Positions 24,174 through 64,000 of a DNA stretch of 64,000 nucleotides are shown here, one piece after another. Source of the stretch: a virus. A program made the translations under genes and the position numbers. Positions within the stretch are counted from its first letter, which is position 1. Every line of letters begins with the position of its first letter. The notes beneath the pieces are model-generated. The model was given only the letters and a program-made list of their open reading frames with translations. It made no database searches and was not told where the DNA came from. The DNA lies in the IMG/VR virus record IMGVR_UViG_3300045131_002929, positions 64,001 to 128,000 of that record. The stretch is one strand, 5' to 3'.

Positions 24174-24798
24174 GAAATATAGAGACGCGGCTGAGGCTTT
24201 CGCTGATCCGGAGCTGTTCGGATCAGCGGCGCTCGTCCTCGCCTACGACATGCTCGGCGACTTCTTCGAATGGGAGCCTGAGACCATCGAGGCGGACCTC
24301 CGCGCCAACGGCGCGCGGCCGGGGCGCGGCTGCATGGACCGGCTTATGGCCGCTGCCACCGTGCGGTCGTCCGCCGCCTTCCACGAGAGTCTGGAGACCT
24401 TCATGGACGTCTGCCACGCCTTGAACTTCGGCAGGGTGTCGGCTTCCGCGATGTCGAACGCGGACCTGGACGACGTGGCGTGGGGCTGCGTCGAGGCCCG
24501 CGTGATAGAAGGCACCGAGGCCTTCGACGCGAACGGGTTCGCGGACGACGTCAGACTGTACGCTGGGTTCCTGCTCGACAGGGCCGGCTTCGACAAGGCG
24601 CCGCGCATACTGGACTTCGCCGAGCTGCCGCAAGGCCGCGGGGCCGACCTGCCGCTGGACGGCACGCTGCTCGGCGTGTTCGCGTCGAACGTCGCGGAGA
24701 TGACGGAGCAGCTGGACGCCGGCGCGTCGGCCCGGCTGCAGAAGCTGTTCGAGCAGATGCGCCGGCTGCCTTTGCGCTCAGGCAAAGTGCCTAATTAA
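24166..24798 (+). CDS. Hypothetical protein (210 aa)
   Basis: Overlaps previous stop; converges on the terminase stop. Confidence 0.65.
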   Translation: MTEKYRDAAEAFADPELFGSAALVLAYDMLGDFFEWEPETIEADLRANGARPGRGCMDRLMAAATVRSSAAFHESLETFMDVCHALNFGRVSASAMSNADLDDVAWGCVEARVIEGTEAFDANGFADDVRLYAGFLLDRAGFDKAPRILDFAELPQGRGADLPLDGTLLGVFASNVAEMTEQLDAGASARLQKLFEQMRRLPLRSGKVPN

Positions 24799-27521
24799 GA
24801 CCACTGGGCCTGCGCCGGATCCGTCAGATCCTCCACGTCCAGCGTGGGCGTCAAAGTGTCCACCAGGCTCGGGTACATGCCCCTTATGTGCCATATCGCC
24901 GAGCACGCGAAATTCAGAGCGTGGGCGAAATCGTCAGTGCAGCCGTCCTCCCTGACCATAAGCGTGTACGAGGACCCCCGCGGCGTCTCATGGGTCTCCT
25001 GCAGTATGGCCATGAGATCCCTCAGAATGTCAGGGCATGTGTCGTACGCCGGCAGTAGGACCTTGCGCCGTTTGATCATCTCGAACAGGATCATCAGCGA
25101 CCTGGTCTTGTCCATGTTGTAGCATGACCGGCCGCCCTGGCCTTTGTAGTAGGATATCACCTTGCGCGAGGAAGGCGAGAACACCAGCTGGAACGGGATG
25201 ACCTGGCTTGCCGGGTAGCCGGACTGGATGAGGACCGCCTCGCGGATCATGCCCGCGCCGGAGAAGTCGTGGGCGATATAGGCCGCCTTGGACATCTGCG
25301 CCAGATCTATCACCCGCTGCGCCTCCTGCTCCGGCTTCATGCCCATAGGCAGCCGCTCCGAGTACATGCAGATCAAGTCGTCGTTCGGCGGCCTTATGCC
25401 GACCAGCGAGACGGCCGTCGTGGACTCACCCGAGGACCCGAACCCGCTCCAGTCGACACCCATGACGACCGGCCCCATGCACTTCAGATGATCGCCGAGC
25501 GCTGAAAGCGTGTTCGGCTTGCCGTGCGACGCGGCCCTTATGTCCTCTTCCGTGAAAGGCTTGGCGCCCTCGTCGCAAGGCTCGCCGAGGATCTCATTGT
25601 TGAACTTGGCCTTGCTGTAGGCGCGCGGGCCCTCCATCTTGCCGAGCAGATCCTTCCACTTCACCTTGCTCCAGCAGTGGATCGGATGCACCGCCTGCGG
25701 CACGTGGTACCCCTCGCAGACGCCGCGCAGCCGCGGCCGGGCGTGGACGAAGAAGCCCTTGCGGACGTCGAGGTCGGAGCCGCACTTCGCGCAGCAGCAG
25801 GTCTCCTTGCCTATCATGCGCTCTAGGTCGTGCGCCAGGGAAGCCACGTTCTCCTTGCCGCAGCCGCAGGGGGTCACCCATTCCGCCATGGAGGAAGATT
25901 TGAAGAGTTTGGACAGCGTGTTGGAGTTGGTCAGCGGCGTGCCCGAGAACTGCAGGAAGCCGGCCGTGTCCTCCTGGGCCGACGTGCACTCCTCGATGAC
26001 GGGCAGGAATTCCTCGTTGATGTCCTGGGCCTCGTCCACGGCCACCTTGGCCACCGCGAAGCCGCGGAGCCGATCGGGGTCGAGGAAGGCGTACGAGAAG
26101 TTCAGCGTGGAGCCGTTCGCCAGCACCTTCTCATAGATGGACTTCTCGCGGCCCTTGTCGACGAGGGCGCGGGCCGTGTCGGAGCTGGACAGCAGGACGT
26201 CCACGTATTTCGTGGAGAACCGCTTGGCCTGCTCGTAGCGGGGCTGCACGAAAAGAGTGTGGAAGTAAGGAGTGACCGCGCCTTGTATAACTCCTTGACT
26301 GGCGAGGCTTAGTGAGTTATGGCTGACTATTCCGTCTAGGATGAAATTATGATGAGTGTCGACTTCTATGTCCAGTGTAAGCGCTGCCGGTATTGGTTTT
26401 ATGCTTACTATCTCGTCCCATCTCACGTCCCCGAACGCCGCGCCTCTTATCTTGCCGGCAGATTCCGGCAGCGGCGGGAATGGTTTGCCTGGTACCTGTA
26501 AATAGGATTTGAATAGCTCCAGCCCCCTTCGCGTCTCTACTCTAACGACGTAAGAATCTAAGCACCTTTTACCATTGCGCGATGTCTTCCGCCTGGTTAT
26601 GGAGGAAGGTATTCCGAATTTAATCAGTAAAGACCTCACGCCCATGGCAAGTTTTCTTGACGCGGAGCTGTAGGAGCACTCCACGGCGCCTCGCGGCGCG
26701 TGCGCGCCTATATGGCCATCCGTCGCCCACAGCCTTGTGAGAAATAAAACGGTGTCCTCTCTGTTCAGATCAAACGCCCATTCAGGTATGAACTTGGTGT
26801 CGGAATAACAACCGAGCAGCCCGTCCGCCTTCAAGTACTCTACGAAAATAGAATGCCGAAAAAGCCTGACGTGCTTCGCCGTCGTGCCGTATTTGCCGGA
26901 CACTTCCCCGGCATTCTCACCCACTAAATCTATAAACTCGTCGAGAGCCTCTCCCGGGCAGGCTGTGAAGACGACGCGGTCTCGATGCGCCATGGACCCG
27001 TCGCCTATCAAGTACGCGGTGACGGCGATTCTAGCCCTGGTCTCTACCCTGCTGGAGAAAGACCCGTGCCTCGCCAGCGACGCCAAACGACTGCCTACCT
27101 CCAACTTGGACGCCGCTTCATACCCGGAATACGTCAACAGCCTGTGGTTCGGCGTGACCGAGAAAGCGGACCCCATACGAGTCTCTATCCGGAGCAAAGG
27201 CTGCGTTCCGTTGTCGAAGATATTGAGTATCCTCTGGGAGTCGGCCTTGAATTCAGGGTCGACGCATGAGACCTCATCACCAACCTTCAGCTCGAACGCT
27301 TTTTTATACAAACCATTGGACAAACGTACTAACTCGTTGATTTCAAGACATTTCCCCATTTGACGTCCGCACATATAGATAAGACGTTTCGGCTGCTCCA
27401 ATCTGAAGAAAGGCTCGAACATGAAATGCCGCTCGAGCGTGAGCGATTTGCCGTTCAGTTTGAATAGCCTTAGAAGCGGCACGAGATTGTCCAGTTTCAC
27501 TTTCGGCTCTTCAGCCATCAT
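24795..27521 (-). CDS. terL: Terminase large subunit (GpA-like) with intein
   Basis: Walker A GRQMGK[intein]S, 'DRLRG...VDEAQD' Walker B, 'SGTP' coupling motif, Cys cluster, nuclease 'MGVDW' and 'DDFAHALNF'. Confidence 0.9.
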   Translation of the reverse strand: MMAEEPKVKLDNLVPLLRLFKLNGKSLTLERHFMFEPFFRLEQPKRLIYMCGRQMGKCLEINELVRLSNGLYKKAFELKVGDEVSCVDPEFKADSQRILNIFDNGTQPLLRIETRMGSAFSVTPNHRLLTYSGYEAASKLEVGSRLASLARHGSFSSRVETRARIAVTAYLIGDGSMAHRDRVVFTACPGEALDEFIDLVGENAGEVSGKYGTTAKHVRLFRHSIFVEYLKADGLLGCYSDTKFIPEWAFDLNREDTVLFLTRLWATDGHIGAHAPRGAVECSYSSASRKLAMGVRSLLIKFGIPSSITRRKTSRNGKRCLDSYVVRVETRRGLELFKSYLQVPGKPFPPLPESAGKIRGAAFGDVRWDEIVSIKPIPAALTLDIEVDTHHNFILDGIVSHNSLSLASQGVIQGAVTPYFHTLFVQPRYEQAKRFSTKYVDVLLSSSDTARALVDKGREKSIYEKVLANGSTLNFSYAFLDPDRLRGFAVAKVAVDEAQDINEEFLPVIEECTSAQEDTAGFLQFSGTPLTNSNTLSKLFKSSSMAEWVTPCGCGKENVASLAHDLERMIGKETCCCAKCGSDLDVRKGFFVHARPRLRGVCEGYHVPQAVHPIHCWSKVKWKDLLGKMEGPRAYSKAKFNNEILGEPCDEGAKPFTEEDIRAASHGKPNTLSALGDHLKCMGPVVMGVDWSGFGSSGESTTAVSLVGIRPPNDDLICMYSERLPMGMKPEQEAQRVIDLAQMSKAAYIAHDFSGAGMIREAVLIQSGYPASQVIPFQLVFSPSSRKVISYYKGQGGRSCYNMDKTRSLMILFEMIKRRKVLLPAYDTCPDILRDLMAILQETHETPRGSSYTLMVREDGCTDDFAHALNFACSAIWHIRGMYPSLVDTLTPTLDVEDLTDPAQAQWS
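26316..27350 (-). mobile_element. Intein with LAGLIDADG homing endonuclease in terminase Walker A (345 aa)
   Basis: Begins CLEINELV, block B 'VTPNHRLL', 'AYLIGDGS' and 'LWATDGH' motifs, ends 'FILDGIVSHN', +1 Ser; lower GC. Confidence 0.93.
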
Positions 27522-56902: not shown

Positions 56903-59900
56903 ATGGCGGAACCCAAGCAAGAGCTGCCCGGGCTTGTCGGCCTGAACGACTACGACGCCCGCCGCAAGCTCATATTCGACTACGCGCTCGAGGGCGTCAA
57001 GACCAAATTCCCGGTGGAGAACACCCAGGTCAGACTGAAGGTCGACAACCTGGCGTACGACGACGATAAGAATTTCACGCCGATGGACCAGAAAGAGGCG
57101 CTGCTCAGCGGCGGCTCGCTGGGGCGCAAGCTGAAGGGCAACTGGGTTCTCGAGGATCTGAAGACCGGCGAAGTGCTGGGCCGGACCTCCAAGAAGACCA
57201 TAGCCAACATCCCATGGCTCACCGACCGCGGAACTTTCATACGCAACGGCTCCGAGTCGAGCATCGTCAACCAGATGCGGCTGGTGCCCGGCGTCTTCGT
57301 CAAGAACACGGAGGACGGCAGGGTGGAGACCCATGTGAACGTCAAGCCCGGCACAGGCCATATGTTCAAAGTGTCGATGGACCCGGCCGATCCAGTGTTC
57401 GAGGTGATGGTCAAAGGCCGTAAGATCAAGATGTACCCGCTGCTCAAGGCGCTGGGGGTGCAGGACGCCGACATGGAGGCCGCGTGGGGCACCGAGATCC
57501 TCGACAAGAACCGCAAGCGCGACGACACGCGGTCGGCGGTGTCCGCCGCGCAGACGTTCGGCGCTTTCCGCAGGATCAACAAAACGGCGGACGAGGCCCC
57601 GAAGCCGCCGGCGCCGGAGCAGCCGGAGCTCGGCATAGAGGACGTGGCCGCCGCCTTTCAGAAGATGGAGCTCGACCCTGAGTCGGTCAGCTCCACTCTC
57701 GGCAAACCCTACGCCAACGTGTCGCCGGCGCTGCTGCTCGACGCCACGAAGAAGATGATCCTGCTCAACAGGGGCATGGCCGAGGCCGACGACCGCGACT
57801 CGCTGGAATTCCAGCGGGTACACATGGCGCATGACTTCATCAAGGAGCGGATCGTCAAGGATTCCGGCGGCATGATCTCCAAGATGTTGTGGAAGGCCAC
57901 CGCGAAGCGGTCGCCGGACGCCATACCGGGCGGTGCGCTGGACAAGCATGTCGACGCCCTCTTCAACTCCGGTGGGCTCACCCAGTACGTCGAGGAGATC
58001 AACCCGCTGGATCCCTACGACCAGGCGCAGCGGCTGACTCGGCTCGGCGAGGGCGCGCTGGGCGACGCCGTGCCCGACGAGGCGCGCGCAGTGCAGCCCA
58101 CCTTCCGCGGCTACGTGGATCCGATACGCAGCCCGCAGAGCTCGGCGGTAGGCCTGGACATGCGCATGGCCCACGGCGTGAAGGTCGGAGCCGACGGCCT
58201 GCTGTACAGGGAGATGGTCAACGCCAAGACGGGCGCCGTGGAGTGGGTCAGCTCGACCAAGGCGGCGCGTTCCGTCATAGGCTTTCCGGAGGCCCTTAAA
58301 AGCAAAGACGACTATGTCCCGGCCACGGTCAAGGCCGAGGGCCTGCAGTATGTGCATAAGGGCACGGTGGACTACGTGATGCGGAGCCCCGGCGACCTTT
58401 TCTCGACAATAAGCAATCTAGTGCCGATGGTGTCCGGGACGAAAGGCCAGCGGCTGCTCATGGGCGCCAGCTACCACCTGAGCGCGCTGCCGCTGCTGCA
58501 CCGGGAGGCGCCGCTGGTCAGATCGGCGCTGCCCGACGGCTCGGATTCGCACAAGGCGCTGGCGCCTTACGCCGGCGTGGTCAGGGCGTCCGAGCCCGGC
58601 TTCGTGGAGAGCGTGGGCAAGGAGTCCATAAAAATCAAAGGCAACGACGGCAAGGTCAAAGAATACCCGCTGTACCACAACTTCCCTTTCGCCCGCAAAT
58701 CCAGCATGTCCAACTCGGCGAGCGTGGAGAAGGGCCAGGCCGTCAAGACCGGCGACCTGCTGGCCACGAGCAACTTCTCCGACAAGAAGGGCGAGGTGGC
58801 CCTGGGTTTGAATCTGAGATGCGCGTACATGCCTTACAAAGGCTACCTGCACGAGGACGCCATAGTAGTCTCCGAGTCGGCGGCTAAAAAGCTCACGTCC
58901 GAGATGATGACGTCCGTCAAGATGCGCGACTCCGAGGGCGTGGAGCCTGGCCTGGCTTCGCACATGTCCAGCTTCCCCTCGGCGTTCAACGAGGCGCAGA
59001 GGCAGACCATAGGTCCCGACGGGCTGGTGAAGGTCGGCACCGTCGTCAGGCCGGGCGACCCACTGATCCTGGCCGTGAAGCGGCAGGCGCCGACGGTCGG
59101 CTCCATGGGGCGCAGGCTGACCACCGACCACGCCGTGACATGGGACCACCATGACGCCGGCGTCGTCACGGACTCCCGCAAGACCAAGGAGGGATGGCGC
59201 GTGCAGGTACGGGCCAACTCCGCCGCGCAGCCGGGCGACAAACTTTGCTATTCGGACGACACCGAGATGCTCACGTCGCGGGGATGGAAGCGCGTCTCCA
59301 GCATTGACACTGCCGACTATCTGGCTTCCAGGACCGAGGCCGGCGAGCTGGAATACGTGCAGCCGATGGCTATAGTGGACTACGAGTACGAAGGGCCGAT
59401 GCACCTGGTGGAGACGACGCAGGTGTCGCTGATGGTCACGCCCGAGCACAGCCACCTGGCCAAGCGGCGCGGCGCGGACGCTTTCGAGCTCATCCCGGCG
59501 GCCGAGCTGTTCGGAACCAGATACAGGCTCAAGAAGGACGCCAAATGGAAAGGGTCTTCGCCTGAGTACGTGGACATGCCCGCCTACACGAGAAAAGCAG
59601 GCCAGGGCGGCGCGGGCGAATTGCTCGTGAAGGGCCGCAGGCTGAGTGTGGACGCCTATATGTTCCTACTAGGAGCCTACCTTTCAGAGGGTAACTGCTT
59701 CGCCTACGACGGCAACTACGGCATAGAGATAACGCAGATCACCGAGCCCAACCGGAGCGACATGCTCGCCAAGCTGAGGGAGTTGGGGATCAAATTCAAC
59801 GAGGTTAACAATAAGACGAAGGTACGGCTGTACGGGAAGGACCTGGCGCTGCACTTCGAGCAGTTCGGCCGCTCGCACGAGAAGTTCATACCCGACTGGG

Positions 59901-62900
59901 TCTTCGACTGCGCCAAGCAGGACCTGGAAACGCTTTATGAGTGGCTGATGTGGGTCGACGGATGCCGCGTATCTACAAGCCACTCGTACTGCACGACATC
60001 CGAAAGACTGGCAGGCGACATCCAGCGGCTCTGCCTGCACATAGGCCTGGCCGGCACGTTGAAGCGCAGAGACGCGACAGTGGGCGAGATCAAAGGTAAA
60101 ACTTATGCTCTCAGGCCGCGGTACGACATCTCGATATACAGACAGAAGCTGGAGCCCGAGATCAACCACGGGCACTGCAAGCGCCAGAAAGGCCAGCGCG
60201 AGGAGTGGGCGGCCTACTCGGGCCGCGTGTACTGCCCATCACTGCCGAGAAACCACACCGTGTATGTGCGGCGCAACGGCAAGACCTGCTGGTCGGGCAA
60301 CTGCGGCAGGCACGGAAATAAAGGTGTCATAGGGCTCATACTCCCGGACGAGCAGATGCCGAAGGACGCGCAAGGCAGGCCGCTGGAGGTTCTGCTCAAC
60401 CCCTACGGCGTATCCGGCCGGACGAATTCCGCGCAGATGATAGAGGCCGCGCTGGGCAAGGTCGCGGCCAAGACGGGCAGGCCCTACGTCATGCCGCTGT
60501 TCGGCGACGATCCGGACGGCTCGCTCATCAGTTTCGCCAAGGCCGAGCTGGCCAAGGCCGGCCTGCGGGACAAGGAGGACGTGTTCGACCCTTCGCTGAA
60601 CAAGAATTTGAAAGACGTGTTCGTCGGCAGCCTTTACATGCACAAACTGCAGCATACGGCCGAGGCCAAGGCTGGCGGGCGGTCGTTCGGCGGATACACC
60701 CAGGACAAGCTGCCTTCCACTGGCGGGCATGACGGTGGTAAGCGTATTGGTAGTATGGAATGCGGGGCAATGTTCTCGCATGGCGCCATGGAGAATCTGA
60801 AGGACATGAAGCTGATCAAAGGCCAGGAGAACTACGACTACTGGCGCGACGTCAAGCTAGGCCGGACGCCGGTCATGCCGCGCGGCAGCTTCCTGTATGA
60901 CAAATTCAGGGCGCAGATGCGGTCGGCCGGCATTAACCTGGAGGACCGCGGCGCGAAGACGCATATATTCGCGATGACGAACGACCAGGCCAAAGAGCTT
61001 ACGCAGGGCCGCGAGGTCCAGAACACGGACACCTACGACGCCAAGAAGTTCACGCCGATAAAAGGCGGGATGTTCGACGAGGCGCTGACCGGCGGCGCTG
61101 AAGGCAATCTGTTCGCCATGGTCAAGCTGGACGAGCCGGTTCTGAACCCGATCATGGAGGATTCGGTACGGCGCATACTCGGCGTCACCATCAAGGATCT
61201 GGAGGCGCTGGCCTCCGGCGACAAGCCCTACAAGGACATGTACGGCGGCAAAGCCTTGAAAGCCAGGCTCGCGGACGTCAATCTGGACATGGAGCTGCTG
61301 AAGGCCCGCAACGCTGCGAAAGGCTCTTCCGGCGCCACGCGCGACGCGGCCGTCAAGAAGATAAGAGCCATAATGTCGATGAAGGAGCATGGCGTTCGGC
61401 CGCAGGATTTCATGATGGACGCCGTGCCCGTGCTGCCGCCGTCGTTCCGGCCGATAACCACGATGGACGGCGAGAACAAGGCCGCCGACGCCAACTACAT
61501 GTACCGCGAGCTCATGTTCGCCAGGAACGACCTGCGCGACGCGGCCGCCATACTGCCCGACAAGGATCTGACCGACGCCCGCCGCAAGGTGATAGGGTCG
61601 TACAAGTCGCTCGTGGGCCTGCAGGACACCGACAACGCGGAGCTGTCCGACAAGAAGGTCGGCGGCATACTGGCCACCGTCTTCGGCAAGAGCTCGCCCA
61701 AAGTCGGCCAATTCCACCGGCGCATGATAGGCATGTCGCAGGATCTCACCACCCGCGCGCCGATCATACCGGATCCGACGCTCCGGGTGGACCAGGTCGG
61801 CCTGCCTTTCAACCGCGCGTGGGAGCTCTACGAGCCTTTCGTCGTCAGGCGGCTCGTGCGCGGCGGCATGCCGGCCACGCAGGCCGCGAAGGCCGTGGCC
61901 GACCGCACGGGCCAGGCCGAGGCCGCCCTGCAGGAATGCGTGCGCGAGCGGCCGGTCATGATAAACAGGGCGCCCACCATGCACAAGCACAGCATAGTGG
62001 GCATGTGGCCGCTGCTGGTCAAGGGCGACTCCATGAAGGTGCCCAACGGAATCCTGGCCCCTATGGGGGCTGACTATGACGGCAACTGCGCCGACTTTAA
62101 CACAGAACTTAAATTAAGATTATCAAAGTCCGCGCTTGAGACCTTCGCCGGTCTAGGGTACATTGTCGGTGTCGATGGGACACTAACAAAGGAGACCTGC
62201 ATGCAGACGGCGGACACAAAGGTGGCGATCAAGGCCGAAGGCGTGGTAGCTACCACGCGTATAGGGGAATTCCCCCGCGCTGGCGTACCTGGCAAGGACA
62301 GGAACGGGGCGGACGTGTACGAGGTTCCGGCAGGCGTCGAGGTTCTGACTCTCGACCCGGCTACGCTGAATCCTATATTCTCCGAGGTGACCACGTTCAC
62401 GGAGGAGAAAGACTGCCCGTGCGTCGAAGTCGCAACCGACACGCAGTGCGTCATAGTCAGCGACAACGAGTCGCTGTGCGTGTTCGACCACGCCTCGGGC
62501 GCGCTCTCGAAGATGGCGCCGAAGTCTTCCGTGGGCATGTTCTCGCCTTCCGTGCGGGCCATGACCACCGGCGAGGACAAGCACTCCAGGGATCTAGGGT
62601 GGTGGGTAGGCGCCTTCGTGTCGGACGGATGGGTGTCTGGAAATTATGTCGGATACGCCAAGTCCGAGAAGGTTAAAAGGGACGAGTTCGTGCGCATCAC
62701 CAGGGAGCTGGTGCACGACAACTTCAACAGCCGAGAGCACGCCGCCTCCAAGGGCGTCGATAAACTCGGCGACAGCGTTAAACTGCATTTGAACGGCCGC
62801 GAGCTGGTCGACGCCGTGCGTGGCATGGGTTTCGTGGAGGACGGGCCGGATAGACAGGCTCTCCGCAAGCGCATACCGCCGAAAATGATCTTCGAGGGTT

Positions 62901-63820
62901 CGGACGAGTTCGCCTGGGGGTTGTTGTCCGGATTGCTGGACGGGGACGGTACGGTGGCCGTCAACATGCACACCGGCAAGCCCAGGTACACGCTGCGCTT
63001 CAGCACCTCGAGCAAGAGCCTGGTGGAGGGGGTGCGCGCGCTTTGCTGGCGCCTCGGGCTGCGCTGCTGCGTCAGCACCACCCCGCCCAGGGGGCATAGC
63101 AAGGAGGCGTACGTCGTGCTTCCCTCCGTGGTCGACGTACGGCCGCACGCCGGCAAATTAAGCTGCGTCGGGGCTTTAGAGCGCGAGAGGGTGGCAGGCC
63201 TGGCGGCGGCCACACTGCGCCAGGACATCAGGGACTACATACCGCTCACGCTCGATGAGGCGAAGAACTTGAAAATCAGGGCAAAGGATCTGGCCGAGAA
63301 GGCGGTGGTGTCGGCGCTTGATAAAAGGAAAGCCACGCCTTGGTTGAACAGGCAGTATCTAGCCAGGTTGATCGCCGGCGACTTCGCGCTTGAGAAGGCC
63401 TTCGAGGCCCGCATGAATCCGCGGATACGCTGGGAGCACATAGAACGAGTGACAGACGCCGGCCGACGGGACGTGTACGACTTCGGCGTTCCCGGCTCCA
63501 AGGTGTTCGCCGTCGACAAGGGCCTGATCATCTGGGACACGCTCACCATCCATGTGCCAGTGTCTGACCTGGCCGTCAAAGAGACCGTGCGCAAGATGAT
63601 GCCGAACAGGATGCTGCTGTCCGGGCGCGATTTCAAGCTCACGTACAAGACAGGCCACGAGTACGTGCACGGGGCCTGGCTGGCCACGAAGCCGCCGAAG
63701 GAAGGCAAGGCCGTCGAGTTCGACACCGCCGCCGACGCGAAGGCGGCTTTCCGCGACGGCAAGATAGATGTGGACACGCCTATAAGAATTCGAAGCAGGG
63801 ACATAGGGGGTGCCCGGTGA
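56903..63820 (+). CDS. Phage RNA polymerase, fused beta-beta' single chain with two inteins (about 1469 aa after splicing)
   Basis: Beta motifs 'TDRGTFIRNG', 'RLLMGA', 'EDAIVVS', 'GDKL|CGRHGNKG', 'LLNPYGV', 'GGKRIGSME'; beta' motifs 'PVLPP.FRP', 'NRAPTMHK', 'ADYDG'. Confidence 0.92.
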   Translation: MAEPKQELPGLVGLNDYDARRKLIFDYALEGVKTKFPVENTQVRLKVDNLAYDDDKNFTPMDQKEALLSGGSLGRKLKGNWVLEDLKTGEVLGRTSKKTIANIPWLTDRGTFIRNGSESSIVNQMRLVPGVFVKNTEDGRVETHVNVKPGTGHMFKVSMDPADPVFEVMVKGRKIKMYPLLKALGVQDADMEAAWGTEILDKNRKRDDTRSAVSAAQTFGAFRRINKTADEAPKPPAPEQPELGIEDVAAAFQKMELDPESVSSTLGKPYANVSPALLLDATKKMILLNRGMAEADDRDSLEFQRVHMAHDFIKERIVKDSGGMISKMLWKATAKRSPDAIPGGALDKHVDALFNSGGLTQYVEEINPLDPYDQAQRLTRLGEGALGDAVPDEARAVQPTFRGYVDPIRSPQSSAVGLDMRMAHGVKVGADGLLYREMVNAKTGAVEWVSSTKAARSVIGFPEALKSKDDYVPATVKAEGLQYVHKGTVDYVMRSPGDLFSTISNLVPMVSGTKGQRLLMGASYHLSALPLLHREAPLVRSALPDGSDSHKALAPYAGVVRASEPGFVESVGKESIKIKGNDGKVKEYPLYHNFPFARKSSMSNSASVEKGQAVKTGDLLATSNFSDKKGEVALGLNLRCAYMPYKGYLHEDAIVVSESAAKKLTSEMMTSVKMRDSEGVEPGLASHMSSFPSAFNEAQRQTIGPDGLVKVGTVVRPGDPLILAVKRQAPTVGSMGRRLTTDHAVTWDHHDAGVVTDSRKTKEGWRVQVRANSAAQPGDKLCYSDDTEMLTSRGWKRVSSIDTADYLASRTEAGELEYVQPMAIVDYEYEGPMHLVETTQVSLMVTPEHSHLAKRRGADAFELIPAAELFGTRYRLKKDAKWKGSSPEYVDMPAYTRKAGQGGAGELLVKGRRLSVDAYMFLLGAYLSEGNCFAYDGNYGIEITQITEPNRSDMLAKLRELGIKFNEVNNKTKVRLYGKDLALHFEQFGRSHEKFIPDWVFDCAKQDLETLYEWLMWVDGCRVSTSHSYCTTSERLAGDIQRLCLHIGLAGTLKRRDATVGEIKGKTYALRPRYDISIYRQKLEPEINHGHCKRQKGQREEWAAYSGRVYCPSLPRNHTVYVRRNGKTCWSGNCGRHGNKGVIGLILPDEQMPKDAQGRPLEVLLNPYGVSGRTNSAQMIEAALGKVAAKTGRPYVMPLFGDDPDGSLISFAKAELAKAGLRDKEDVFDPSLNKNLKDVFVGSLYMHKLQHTAEAKAGGRSFGGYTQDKLPSTGGHDGGKRIGSMECGAMFSHGAMENLKDMKLIKGQENYDYWRDVKLGRTPVMPRGSFLYDKFRAQMRSAGINLEDRGAKTHIFAMTNDQAKELTQGREVQNTDTYDAKKFTPIKGGMFDEALTGGAEGNLFAMVKLDEPVLNPIMEDSVRRILGVTIKDLEALASGDKPYKDMYGGKALKARLADVNLDMELLKARNAAKGSSGATRDAAVKKIRAIMSMKEHGVRPQDFMMDAVPVLPPSFRPITTMDGENKAADANYMYRELMFARNDLRDAAAILPDKDLTDARRKVIGSYKSLVGLQDTDNAELSDKKVGGILATVFGKSSPKVGQFHRRMIGMSQDLTTRAPIIPDPTLRVDQVGLPFNRAWELYEPFVVRRLVRGGMPATQAAKAVADRTGQAEAALQECVRERPVMINRAPTMHKHSIVGMWPLLVKGDSMKVPNGILAPMGADYDGNCADFNTELKLRLSKSALETFAGLGYIVGVDGTLTKETCMQTADTKVAIKAEGVVATTRIGEFPRAGVPGKDRNGADVYEVPAGVEVLTLDPATLNPIFSEVTTFTEEKDCPCVEVATDTQCVIVSDNESLCVFDHASGALSKMAPKSSVGMFSPSVRAMTTGEDKHSRDLGWWVGAFVSDGWVSGNYVGYAKSEKVKRDEFVRITRELVHDNFNSREHAASKGVDKLGDSVKLHLNGRELVDAVRGMGFVEDGPDRQALRKRIPPKMIFEGSDEFAWGLLSGLLDGDGTVAVNMHTGKPRYTLRFSTSSKSLVEGVRALCWRLGLRCCVSTTPPRGHSKEAYVVLPSVVDVRPHAGKLSCVGALERERVAGLAAATLRQDIRDYIPLTLDEAKNLKIRAKDLAEKAVVSALDKRKATPWLNRQYLARLIAGDFALEKAFEARMNPRIRWEHIERVTDAGRRDVYDFGVPGSKVFAVDKGLIIWDTLTIHVPVSDLAVKETVRKMMPNRMLLSGRDFKLTYKTGHEYVHGAWLATKPPKEGKAVEFDTAADAKAAFRDGKIDVDTPIRIRSRDIGGAR
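59246..60301 (+). mobile_element. Intein 1 in RNAP beta GDKL-x-GRHGNKG motif (352 aa, LAGLIDADG)
   Basis: Begins CYSDDTEMLTSRGWK, 'VTPEH', 'LGAYLSEG', ends 'YVRRNGKTCWSGN', +1 Cys. Confidence 0.93.
62087..63538 (+). mobile_element. Intein 2 in RNAP catalytic DxDGD loop (484 aa, LAGLIDADG), atypical Asp terminus
   Basis: Begins CADFNTEL, 'VGAFVSDG', 'LSGLLDGDG', block F 'VYDFGVPG..VFAVDKG', ends IIWD, +1 Thr. Confidence 0.88.
62136..62203 (+). promoter_or_regulatory. Internal promoter, RBS and in-frame ATG inside intein 2
   Basis: TTGAGA-17 nt-TACATT (62136-62164), AAAGGAGA (62188-62195), ATG 62201 in frame with the RNAP gene. Confidence 0.55.
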
Positions 63821-64000
63821 GCTCCGAACAGTCGTCGATCATCCATTTCGTGCCGGCCGAGGCCGAGGCCGACGTCAAGTCGAACGGGCTTATGACCGCG
63901 CAGGCCCTGTCGGCGGCCGGCCGGCCGGAGGGCGCGCGCCACCTGGCCAGCTATCTGGCGAAGATGAAGTTCAAGCCGGAGGCCAAAGCGGCCTACGACA
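63817..64000 (+). CDS. Partial CDS, possible ADP-ribosyltransferase-fold protein
   Basis: GTGA overlap with the RNAP stop; 'IIHFVP.....DVKSNGLMT..AL' resembles the H-x(n)-I-xxx-GL N-terminal motif of Tpt1/DarT-like folds; truncated by the window end. Confidence 0.35.
   Translation, partial: MSSEQSSIIHFVPAEAEADVKSNGLMTAQALSAAGRPEGARHLASYLAKMKFKPEAKAAYD

Follow-up and report, generated by a model that had tools for sequence, protein, structure and literature searches.

Among the systems closest to the element described here, AceL-TerL, GOS-TerL and VidaL are atypically split inteins with a short N-terminal fragment, and the L polymerases of mononegaviruses carry a GDN motif C, with a natural Asn where related polymerases have Asp. 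Few motifs in biology are as invariant as the NADFDGD triad of two-barrel RNA polymerases. For inteins with Asp, Gln or Glu as the last residue, the proposed splicing route is cyclisation of this residue, functional inteins with other residues at the penultimate position (G:6) are known, and Tko CDC21-1 was the one functional intein lacking the block-B histidine (His B:10) known to a 2014 review (PMC4031507). A 64,000-nucleotide stretch of viral DNA (hereafter the window; bases 64001-128000 of the 146.6-kb IMG/VR virus record IMGVR_UViG_3300045131_002929, a lake phage judged about 79% complete) encodes a two-barrel RNA polymerase whose catalytic loop is interrupted by an intein and carries Asn at the third triad position. 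This Asn is found in more than 100 diverged lineages of phage polymerases, always beside one particular intein, and one textbook rule must yield: either an Asp-Asp-Asn two-barrel RNA polymerase works, or splicing alters the identity of a flanking residue. On balance, and with modest confidence, we favour the reading that a mobile intein undergoes class-1 splicing in the canonical register and itself imposes the Asn that precedes it, at position -1.

The intein and its host polymerase

The elements of the host gene and of the intein are the following.

56903-63820, plus strand: fused beta and N-terminal beta' two-barrel RNA polymerase, 2305 residues including two inteins, open reading frame (ORF) unbroken
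62069-62086, plus strand: catalytic metal-binding loop A-D-Y-D-G-N, with Asn (AAC, 62084-62086) at the third triad position
62087-63538, plus strand: intein (P0002), Cys1 to Asp484, 484 residues
62459-62473, plus strand: block B, S125-D-N127-E128-S129 (preceded by V), with Ser at B:7 and Glu replacing His B:10
62588-63211, plus strand: LAGLIDADG homing-endonuclease domain (Pfam LAGLIDADG_3, PF14528, E=9e-9), the only part of the intein visible to Pfam
63479-63541, plus strand: blocks F and G, VYD465FGVPGSKVFAVDKGLIIW483-D484, then Thr+1 (63539-63541); no His at F:13 or G:6
63539-63820, plus strand: C-extein TLTIHVPVS... and stop codon, 93 residues; the next ORF begins at 63817

In the host gene an Rpb2 region is followed by Rpb1 domains 1 and 2 (Pfam RNA_pol_Rpb2_6, Rpb1_1, Rpb1_2), and the closest relatives of its product are insert-free proteins of uncultured phages (1463-1497 residues); deposited phages match it at about 28% identity only. 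It encodes the one beta' double-psi barrel detected in the 146.6-kb record. The 85 intein-free homologues compared read D-x-D-G-D↓[T/A/Q]-x-x-x-H-V-P (arrows mark junctions or insertion sites) without a break at this point, and continue for 85-91 residues after the motif. The loop of the window, encoded as D-Y-D-G-N, departs from the D-x-D-G-D metal-A signature of two-barrel RNA polymerases, with the other Rpb1/Rpb2 domains present.

Specifically, the loop is followed by Cys1 (TGC, 62087-62089), and the insert ends in I-I-W-D, its terminal Asp (GAC, 63536-63538) standing before T-L-T-I-H-V-P-V-S, which starts at 63539. The junctions DYDGN↓C...IIWD↓T are, between 62069 and 63541, just as an earlier reading of the letters without database searches (the sequence-only reading) had described them, and the two histidines that it had found missing are indeed absent, Glu occupying B:10 and Trp the penultimate position. 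The AlphaFold2 model of the intein, built on an alignment of 36 relatives, has a mean predicted local distance difference test score (pLDDT) of 86.8 and a predicted template modelling score of 0.84, and Foldseek matches this model best to TliVMA (7qss, E 7e-20), PI-PfuI (1dq3) and PI-SceI, with E from 7e-20 to 1e-12; by sequence, the intein matched no PDB chain. The splicing blocks, the in-frame insertion and the 85 insert-free homologues identify a Hint-fold intein, and Cys1 and Thr+1 supply both nucleophiles. A bacterial intein-like (BIL) domain does not fit an insert that occupies the most conserved site of an essential enzyme, is followed by Thr or Ser at +1 and holds a nested homing endonuclease. 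The insert is, therefore, a genuine intein with a nested LAGLIDADG endonuclease. The endonuclease, whose fold matches include I-DmoI and PI-SceI, is probably active because both LAGLIDADG acidic residues are retained (D180, 62624-62626, ...AFVSD180G...; D287, 62945-62947, ...LLDGD287G...), in columns nearly invariant among the relatives (numbered D186 and D293 in the aligned query).

The splicing blocks combine ordinary and unusual forms. Block A has the ordinary form C-x-x-x-(D/N)-T-x-(I/L), block B reads Ser-Asp-Asn-Glu instead of the class 1 Thr-x-x-His, block F (VYDFGVPGSKVF) has Asp at F:4, and at G:6 and G:7 Trp-Asp stands in place of the penultimate His and terminal Asn. Block G (GLIIWD↓T) lines up with the canonical G-x-x-V-H-N↓C/S/T, which places Asp484 at the usual position of the terminal Asn, and this alignment of blocks A and G, together with the conserved +1 nucleophile, fixes the canonical register. 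Canonical splicing would thus yield DYDGN-T, as the sequence-only reading had predicted, and the junction peptide would be ...GADYDG[N/D]TLTIHVPVSDLAVK, with Asn or Asp at -1. The junction shifted by one residue that it had also considered fails, since GLIIWD↓T aligns with GxxVHN↓C and only alleles with the intein require Thr or Ser at +1. For the same reason we rejected an insert running from N-C to W between the Gly and the Asp: blocks A and G are canonical, Thr+1 is kept and Asp is unfit as a +1 nucleophile. A start at the second Cys (TC↓MQTADTKV) was rejected as well; in the relatives the Met that follows is an internal start in the loop between strand 1 and strand 2, and one relative (L011), which has no loop insert at all, contradicts it.

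Junction residues across the family

The intein was searched by phmmer against 1.84 billion representatives, which returned 573 relatives at E<=1e-3 and 136 below 1e-30. All retrieved proteins were aligned to a hidden Markov model that included 6 flanking residues of the N-extein and 8 of the C-extein, and junctions were counted in 117 inteins complete at both ends, each from a separate 50%-identity cluster. N↓C...D↓T or N↓C...D↓S occurs in 105 of them and D↓S...D↓T/S in eight, and three have a terminal Asn with D↓S, D↓Q or D↓D; in addition, two sequences have D↓C (P0259 and P0262). Among the relatives with Asn at -1 and Cys1 (N↓C...D↓T/S, class I), Asn(-1) and Cys1 are both invariant (108/108, with never a Ser, Ala or Gly at -1), the terminal residue is always Asp (105/105), and +1 is Thr in 101 and Ser in four of the 105. 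The first two Asp of the triad and its Gly are retained in 105-108 of the 108 class I hosts. The penultimate residue of the 117 complete inteins is mostly Tyr (58), Trp (42) or Phe (6), and the block B form S-x-N-E-S is present in 112 relatives.

That the two junction codons stem from faulty sequencing or assembly is suggested by nothing but the oddness of the residues, and we give it no credence: more than 100 independent clusters, drawn from different samples, show the same two residues, and 105 of the 117 complete relatives share the junctions. Moreover, AAC and AAT at -1, and GAC and GAT at the intein end, vary among loci, which means that the junction residues are selected as amino acids.

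The comparison with intein-free alleles ties the Asn to the intein. Over 200 residues before and 85 after the loop, the 101 intein hosts differ from the 85 intein-free homologues in two columns only, -1 (Asn in 100% versus 0%) and +1 (Thr in 97% versus 39%). In a separate count of intein-free alleles, +1 was Ala in 35, Thr in 30 and Gln in 10. The sequence-only reading had asked whether DGD goes with the absence of the intein and DGN with its presence, and the answer is unambiguous: DGD in 85/85 intein-free homologues, DGN in 101/101 hosts of this comparison and in 108/108 hosts of Cys1 inteins. The case that would have undone its claim, intein-free homologues with DxDGN, is found in 0/85. Asn(-1) and Thr/Ser(+1) are both tied to the presence of the intein, and in the favoured reading the Asn is demanded by the intein and not by the polymerase. 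Furthermore, the strict need for Thr or Ser at +1, confined to alleles with the intein, points to selection on transesterification, and hence to real ligation.

Other searches added little. Scans of viral contigs with DNA patterns for an intein-free DFDGN-T/A...H-V-P gave 0 matches, as did the DFDGD control; a word-based search of proteins for the junction peptide that splicing would produce gave one candidate only; and a single-protein search of prokaryote genome contigs, aimed at a cellular rpoC with this intein, gave 0 matches, with patterns that were not the conserved ones.

The sequence-only reading had proposed a reciprocal swap of Asn and Asp between the two junctions. This part of it does not hold, because the family includes a sister group with Ser1, Asp at -1 and a terminal Asp (DGD↓S...D↓T/S), mostly with S-x-D-H-S in block B, in which the terminal Asp compensates for nothing. 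Judging from this distribution of junction types, the terminal Asp is an ancestral, family-wide trait rather than a compensation for Asn(-1). A true swap in which Asn(-1) would serve in trans as the missing terminal Asn is likewise disfavoured, the sister group having Asp at both positions. The feature that does co-occur with Asn(-1) is the block B Glu (S-x-N-E-S); the D↓C sequences, like the sister group, mostly have S-x-D-H-S, and Asn(-1) was never found with Ser1. On a tree of 145 representatives, with a median terminal branch of 0.64 substitutions per site, the state at -1 changes twice; hence, the Asn clade arose essentially once and has been retained since.

Class I inteins share a mean pairwise identity of 33%, and their divergence correlates with that of the exteins (Spearman 0.32). 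In one case, two inteins with 96% identity lie in hosts whose N-exteins are just 40-50% identical, which indicates a recent horizontal transfer inside a deeply diverged family. At a further locus (L002:5880-6003) the G-N-C codons and strand 1 are deleted and the frame is shifted, so that the polymerase gene ends in ...DFDRSLSLTKTTSCGIVC and a stop, and the second part restarts at the conserved AAGGAG and ATG; we considered this locus as a clean split and rejected it, the deletion and the frameshift marking a degraded allele. The transfer, the existence of at least one degraded allele and the two intact acidic residues of the endonuclease are what a selfish burden would leave, in which a homing intein drags the Asn codon along and a crippled or non-functional polymerase is tolerated. 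We consider this the least probable of the biological explanations and very improbable in itself, given that the ORF of 2305 residues is intact, that the other catalytic residues are conserved in 108 hosts, that intein and extein diverged in a correlated manner and that the gene holds the sole beta' barrel of the record.

The same intein also occurs in the catalytic loop of a second polymerase lineage (P0176, P0186, P0188, P0199, P0223, P0265), with the C-extein T-x-S-x-x-P-I-L-S-D-E-A-N; there, too, Asn(-1) accompanies Cys1, and P0223 has Asp with Ser1. A further member (P0200) lies in an unrelated glycosyltransferase-like protein, ...GTPDFDGE↓C...IVWD↓TQLRLE, at a site that resembles the polymerase loop, and this insertion is probably a case of ectopic homing.

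Proposed splicing without histidines and the fate of the asparagine

The favoured reading, splicing in the canonical register with an Asn imposed by the intein, would rely on an unusual catalytic set: Cys1, the Ser-x-Asn-Glu of block B, Asp F:4, a penultimate Trp or Tyr, the terminal Asp, and Thr or Ser at +1. We infer four steps that end in ligation. An N-to-S acyl shift would activate the bond between Asn(-1) and Cys1, the N-extein would then be moved onto the hydroxyl of Thr+1, the terminal Asp would cyclise, a step shared with other inteins whose last residue is Asp or Gln, and an O-to-N shift would close the peptide bond, leaving a nascent polymerase with D-Y-D-G-N-T. Asp(-1) next to the Cys1 thioester reportedly promotes early N-terminal cleavage through a cyclic anhydride (Southworth 1999; Amitai 2009). 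With an Asp carboxylate beside both the Cys1 thioester and the block B Glu, one would expect either premature cleavage at the N-terminal junction or an electrostatic clash, and the clade may have fixed Asn at -1 as an isosteric, neutral substitute for Asp.

The hosts remain catalytically constrained enzymes, with the rest of the triad kept in class I and one beta' barrel in the record, and the fate of the Asn in the mature protein can be argued in more than one way. There is close to an even chance that, in the mature enzyme, metal A takes its third ligand from the carbonyl oxygen of the Asn, maybe at some cost. Deamidation of the Asn to Asp during or after splicing appears less likely but is a serious contender; deamidation after splicing and without coupling to the intein is, taken separately, quite improbable. 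Efficient self-deamidation by the polymerase active site is disfavoured, because Asn would then be nearly neutral without the intein, yet it is found in none of the 85 intein-free homologues.

Several points weigh against the favoured reading. Each Asp of the triad is reported to be essential in multisubunit RNA polymerases (Zaychikov 1996; Sosunov 2005), and the absence of Asn at the third position from all intein-free homologues indicates that it is disfavoured for the enzyme itself. No acidic column that could compensate was found in class I hosts within 200 residues before and 85 after the loop. The Glu at -1 of the glycosyltransferase-like host means that an acidic -1 residue is not wholly excluded for this intein family. 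Moreover, about 50,000 deposited phage genomes searched with the intein by tblastn gave no match, and no cultured phage among them carries it. Lastly, His B:10 has been described as the most conserved residue of inteins (PMC4031507), and an intein lacking every one of the three histidines may use unforeseen chemistry.

Such chemistry is at the heart of the principal alternative, in which Asn(-1) would be a masked Asp, turned into Asp during maturation to give a mature loop DYDGD-T, either by attack on the side-chain amide, by the Cys1 thiol or with assistance from the block B Glu, or by acyl transfer between Asn(-1) and an Asp-derived anhydride at the intein end. That the Asn is a protected catalytic Asp, converted during or just after maturation in a splicing-coupled edit of the host, strikes us as rather unlikely; as a complete rival account, splicing-coupled conversion is unlikely to a slightly greater degree. 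It is attractive because Asn, the sole residue that can be hydrolysed to Asp, is the one strictly kept at -1, to the exclusion of Ser, Ala and Gly, and is never paired with Ser1; because the catalytic set is odd, with Glu in place of His; and because the flanking extein shows no compensating change. In addition, no intein is more abundant at the site, and its persistence over deep divergence within an essential active site speaks for full fitness of the mature enzyme. Conversely, such intein chemistry is not known to have a precedent, and the sister group presumably splices with Asp(-1) and a terminal Asp and without any Asn, so that the terminal-Asp machinery is independent of the Asn. The tie between Asn(-1) and Cys1 may reflect shared ancestry, as the tree needs two changes only, and succinimide routes from an Asn thioester should, on chemical grounds, yield Asn or isoAsn (for isoAsn, PMC4031507) and not a peptide-linked Asp. 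If conversion did take place, an essential active-site residue would be written in the genome as another amino acid and restored by protein chemistry, and a histidine-less Cys/Glu/Asp centre would constitute a new mechanistic class of intein.

A further possibility is cleavage without ligation, in which the succinimide of the N-terminal fragment would open to isoAsn (an Asp alpha-amide), giving back the side-chain carboxylate in a nicked, two-chain polymerase. An Asn beside a thioester does cyclise readily and hydrolysis of the succinimide does give isoAsn (PMC4031507), some relatives consist of two genes split within the intein, and the polymerase is already made of several chains. We judge it very improbable all the same: the obligatory Thr or Ser at +1, restricted to alleles with the intein, is the signature of transesterification and ligation, and the opening of a succinimide mostly gives plain Asn. 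To our knowledge, no polymerase with a nicked catalytic loop has been described.

Predicted internal start signals, neighbouring inserts and known inteins

The N-terminal part of the intein gene contains a second, predicted set of expression signals.

62097-62164, plus strand: promoter-like sites TTAACA-18-TATCAA (62097-62126) and TTGAGA-17-TACATT (62136-62164), within the N-terminal codons of the intein
62189-62203, plus strand: ribosome-binding site AAGGAG (62189-62194), 6-nt spacer and in-frame ATG (62201-62203, Met39)

The two promoter-like sites compare with 0.2 expected from shuffled sequence and lie in a local GC dip, an AT-richer island; in four further loci (L005, L006, L007 and L018) such sites recur at the same distances, 10 nt and 49 nt, from the Cys codon. 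A Shine-Dalgarno-like motif precedes the homologous ATG by 6-10 nt in 8/8 loci, and Met is present at the homologous position in 79 of 85 class I representatives. The cassette occupies a loop between strand 1 (residues 7-12), with a short helix (S-K-S-A-L-E...), and strand 2, which is modelled as disordered (pLDDT 34-49) and is missing from L011. In two relatives the intein is split at this very point, with an N-terminal fragment of about 40 residues and a C-terminal fragment that includes the endonuclease: in L018 the upstream gene ends in ...DFDGN↓C plus 39 residues and its stop overlaps the ATG of the next gene (ATGA), and in L017 the two parts lie in different frames, with the break at the homologous Met. 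A third candidate (P0124) was rejected as a split gene, as its gene call ends with its contig. The intein of the window, by contrast with these, lies in a continuous ORF. The predicted promoter, ribosome-binding site and ATG could express the endonuclease part and the C-extein separately, and the window copy may be a contiguous intein that retains, and perhaps uses, the start signals of a second half. The predicted cassette offers a model both for endonuclease expression independent of the 6.9-kb host gene and for the interconversion of contiguous and split inteins.

The polymerase gene holds a second insert.

59246-60301, plus strand: second, unrelated LAGLIDADG intein in the beta part, GDKL↓C...CWSGN↓CGRHGNKGV, 352 residues

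This beta-part intein ends in a canonical Asn and is followed by Cys at +1, with Gly replacing the penultimate His. In other polymerases the DGD↓ site is itself occupied by other insert types (P0038, P0040, P0044, P0064, P0065, P0069, P0086, P0097), which end in ...L-S-N↓T and whose first residue is either Ser/Thr or a non-nucleophile (Asp, Glu, Gln, Lys); several of these hosts stop 20-74 residues past DGD and look like the N-terminal halves of split genes. Its use by several intein lineages makes the site a hot spot, and class 2 or class 3 inteins may be among them.

Directly 3' of the polymerase gene lies an ORF of 533 residues (window 63817-64000 and L019:118-1719) without a match in Pfam, PHROG or the PDB chains, so that no gene could be assigned to the bridge-helix and trigger-loop half of beta'. 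Elsewhere, the window contains an SbcC-like gene and a large terminase gene. Almost all genes lie on the same strand, and the terminase ORF (24795-27521, minus strand, 908 residues) stands amid plus-strand genes; its TerL match is limited to residues 420-885, and its N-terminal 300 residues have a weak helicase-like match.

As a natural collection of inteins that lack catalytic histidines, some contiguous and others atypically split after about 40 residues, the family is relevant to the mechanism of inteins and to protein-ligation tools. Our literature searches turned up neither an intein located in the DFDGD loop nor an intein family with Glu at B:10 and no His at B:10, F:13 and G:6. As far as the literature shows, what is new here is the histidine-less family (Glu B:10, terminal Asp) and an internal promoter-like, ribosome-binding and ATG site that coincides with the break point of split relatives.

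Compared with structurally known inteins, the element shares with TliVMA (7qss), PI-PfuI (1dq3) and PI-SceI (1vde) a Hint splicing domain with a nested LAGLIDADG endonuclease, Cys1, Asp F:4, a +1 nucleophile and a location in the conserved catalytic site of an essential enzyme. It differs from them in sequence (only 11-13% identity in fold alignments), in its Glu B:10, in the lack of His at F:13 and G:6, in the terminal Asp, in the fixed Asn at -1 and in the loop with promoter, ribosome-binding site and ATG. A non-Asn terminus, with presumed cyclisation of Asp or Gln, is common to the C. hydrogenoformans RIR1, CIV RNR, Pab Pol II and Mma Pol II inteins (PMC4031507), but those are isolated variants that keep His B:10, whereas here the terminal Asp is fixed across more than 110 clusters and all the histidines are lost. 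Similarly, the block B His is absent from Tko CDC21-1, in which a Lys outside the motifs substitutes for it; in the present family Glu at B:10 and Asn at B:9 are both family-wide. The GDN motif of the mononegavirus polymerases offers a precedent for an enzyme that works with Asn, although in a right-hand-fold superfamily, with a different role for the residue and without an intein. Lastly, the split after about 40 residues in L018 and L017, at the point where the window retains a ribosome-binding site and an ATG, recalls AceL-TerL, GOS-TerL and VidaL; unlike these, the window copy is contiguous, and the split relatives carry a full homing endonuclease in the C-terminal fragment and N↓C...D↓T junctions.

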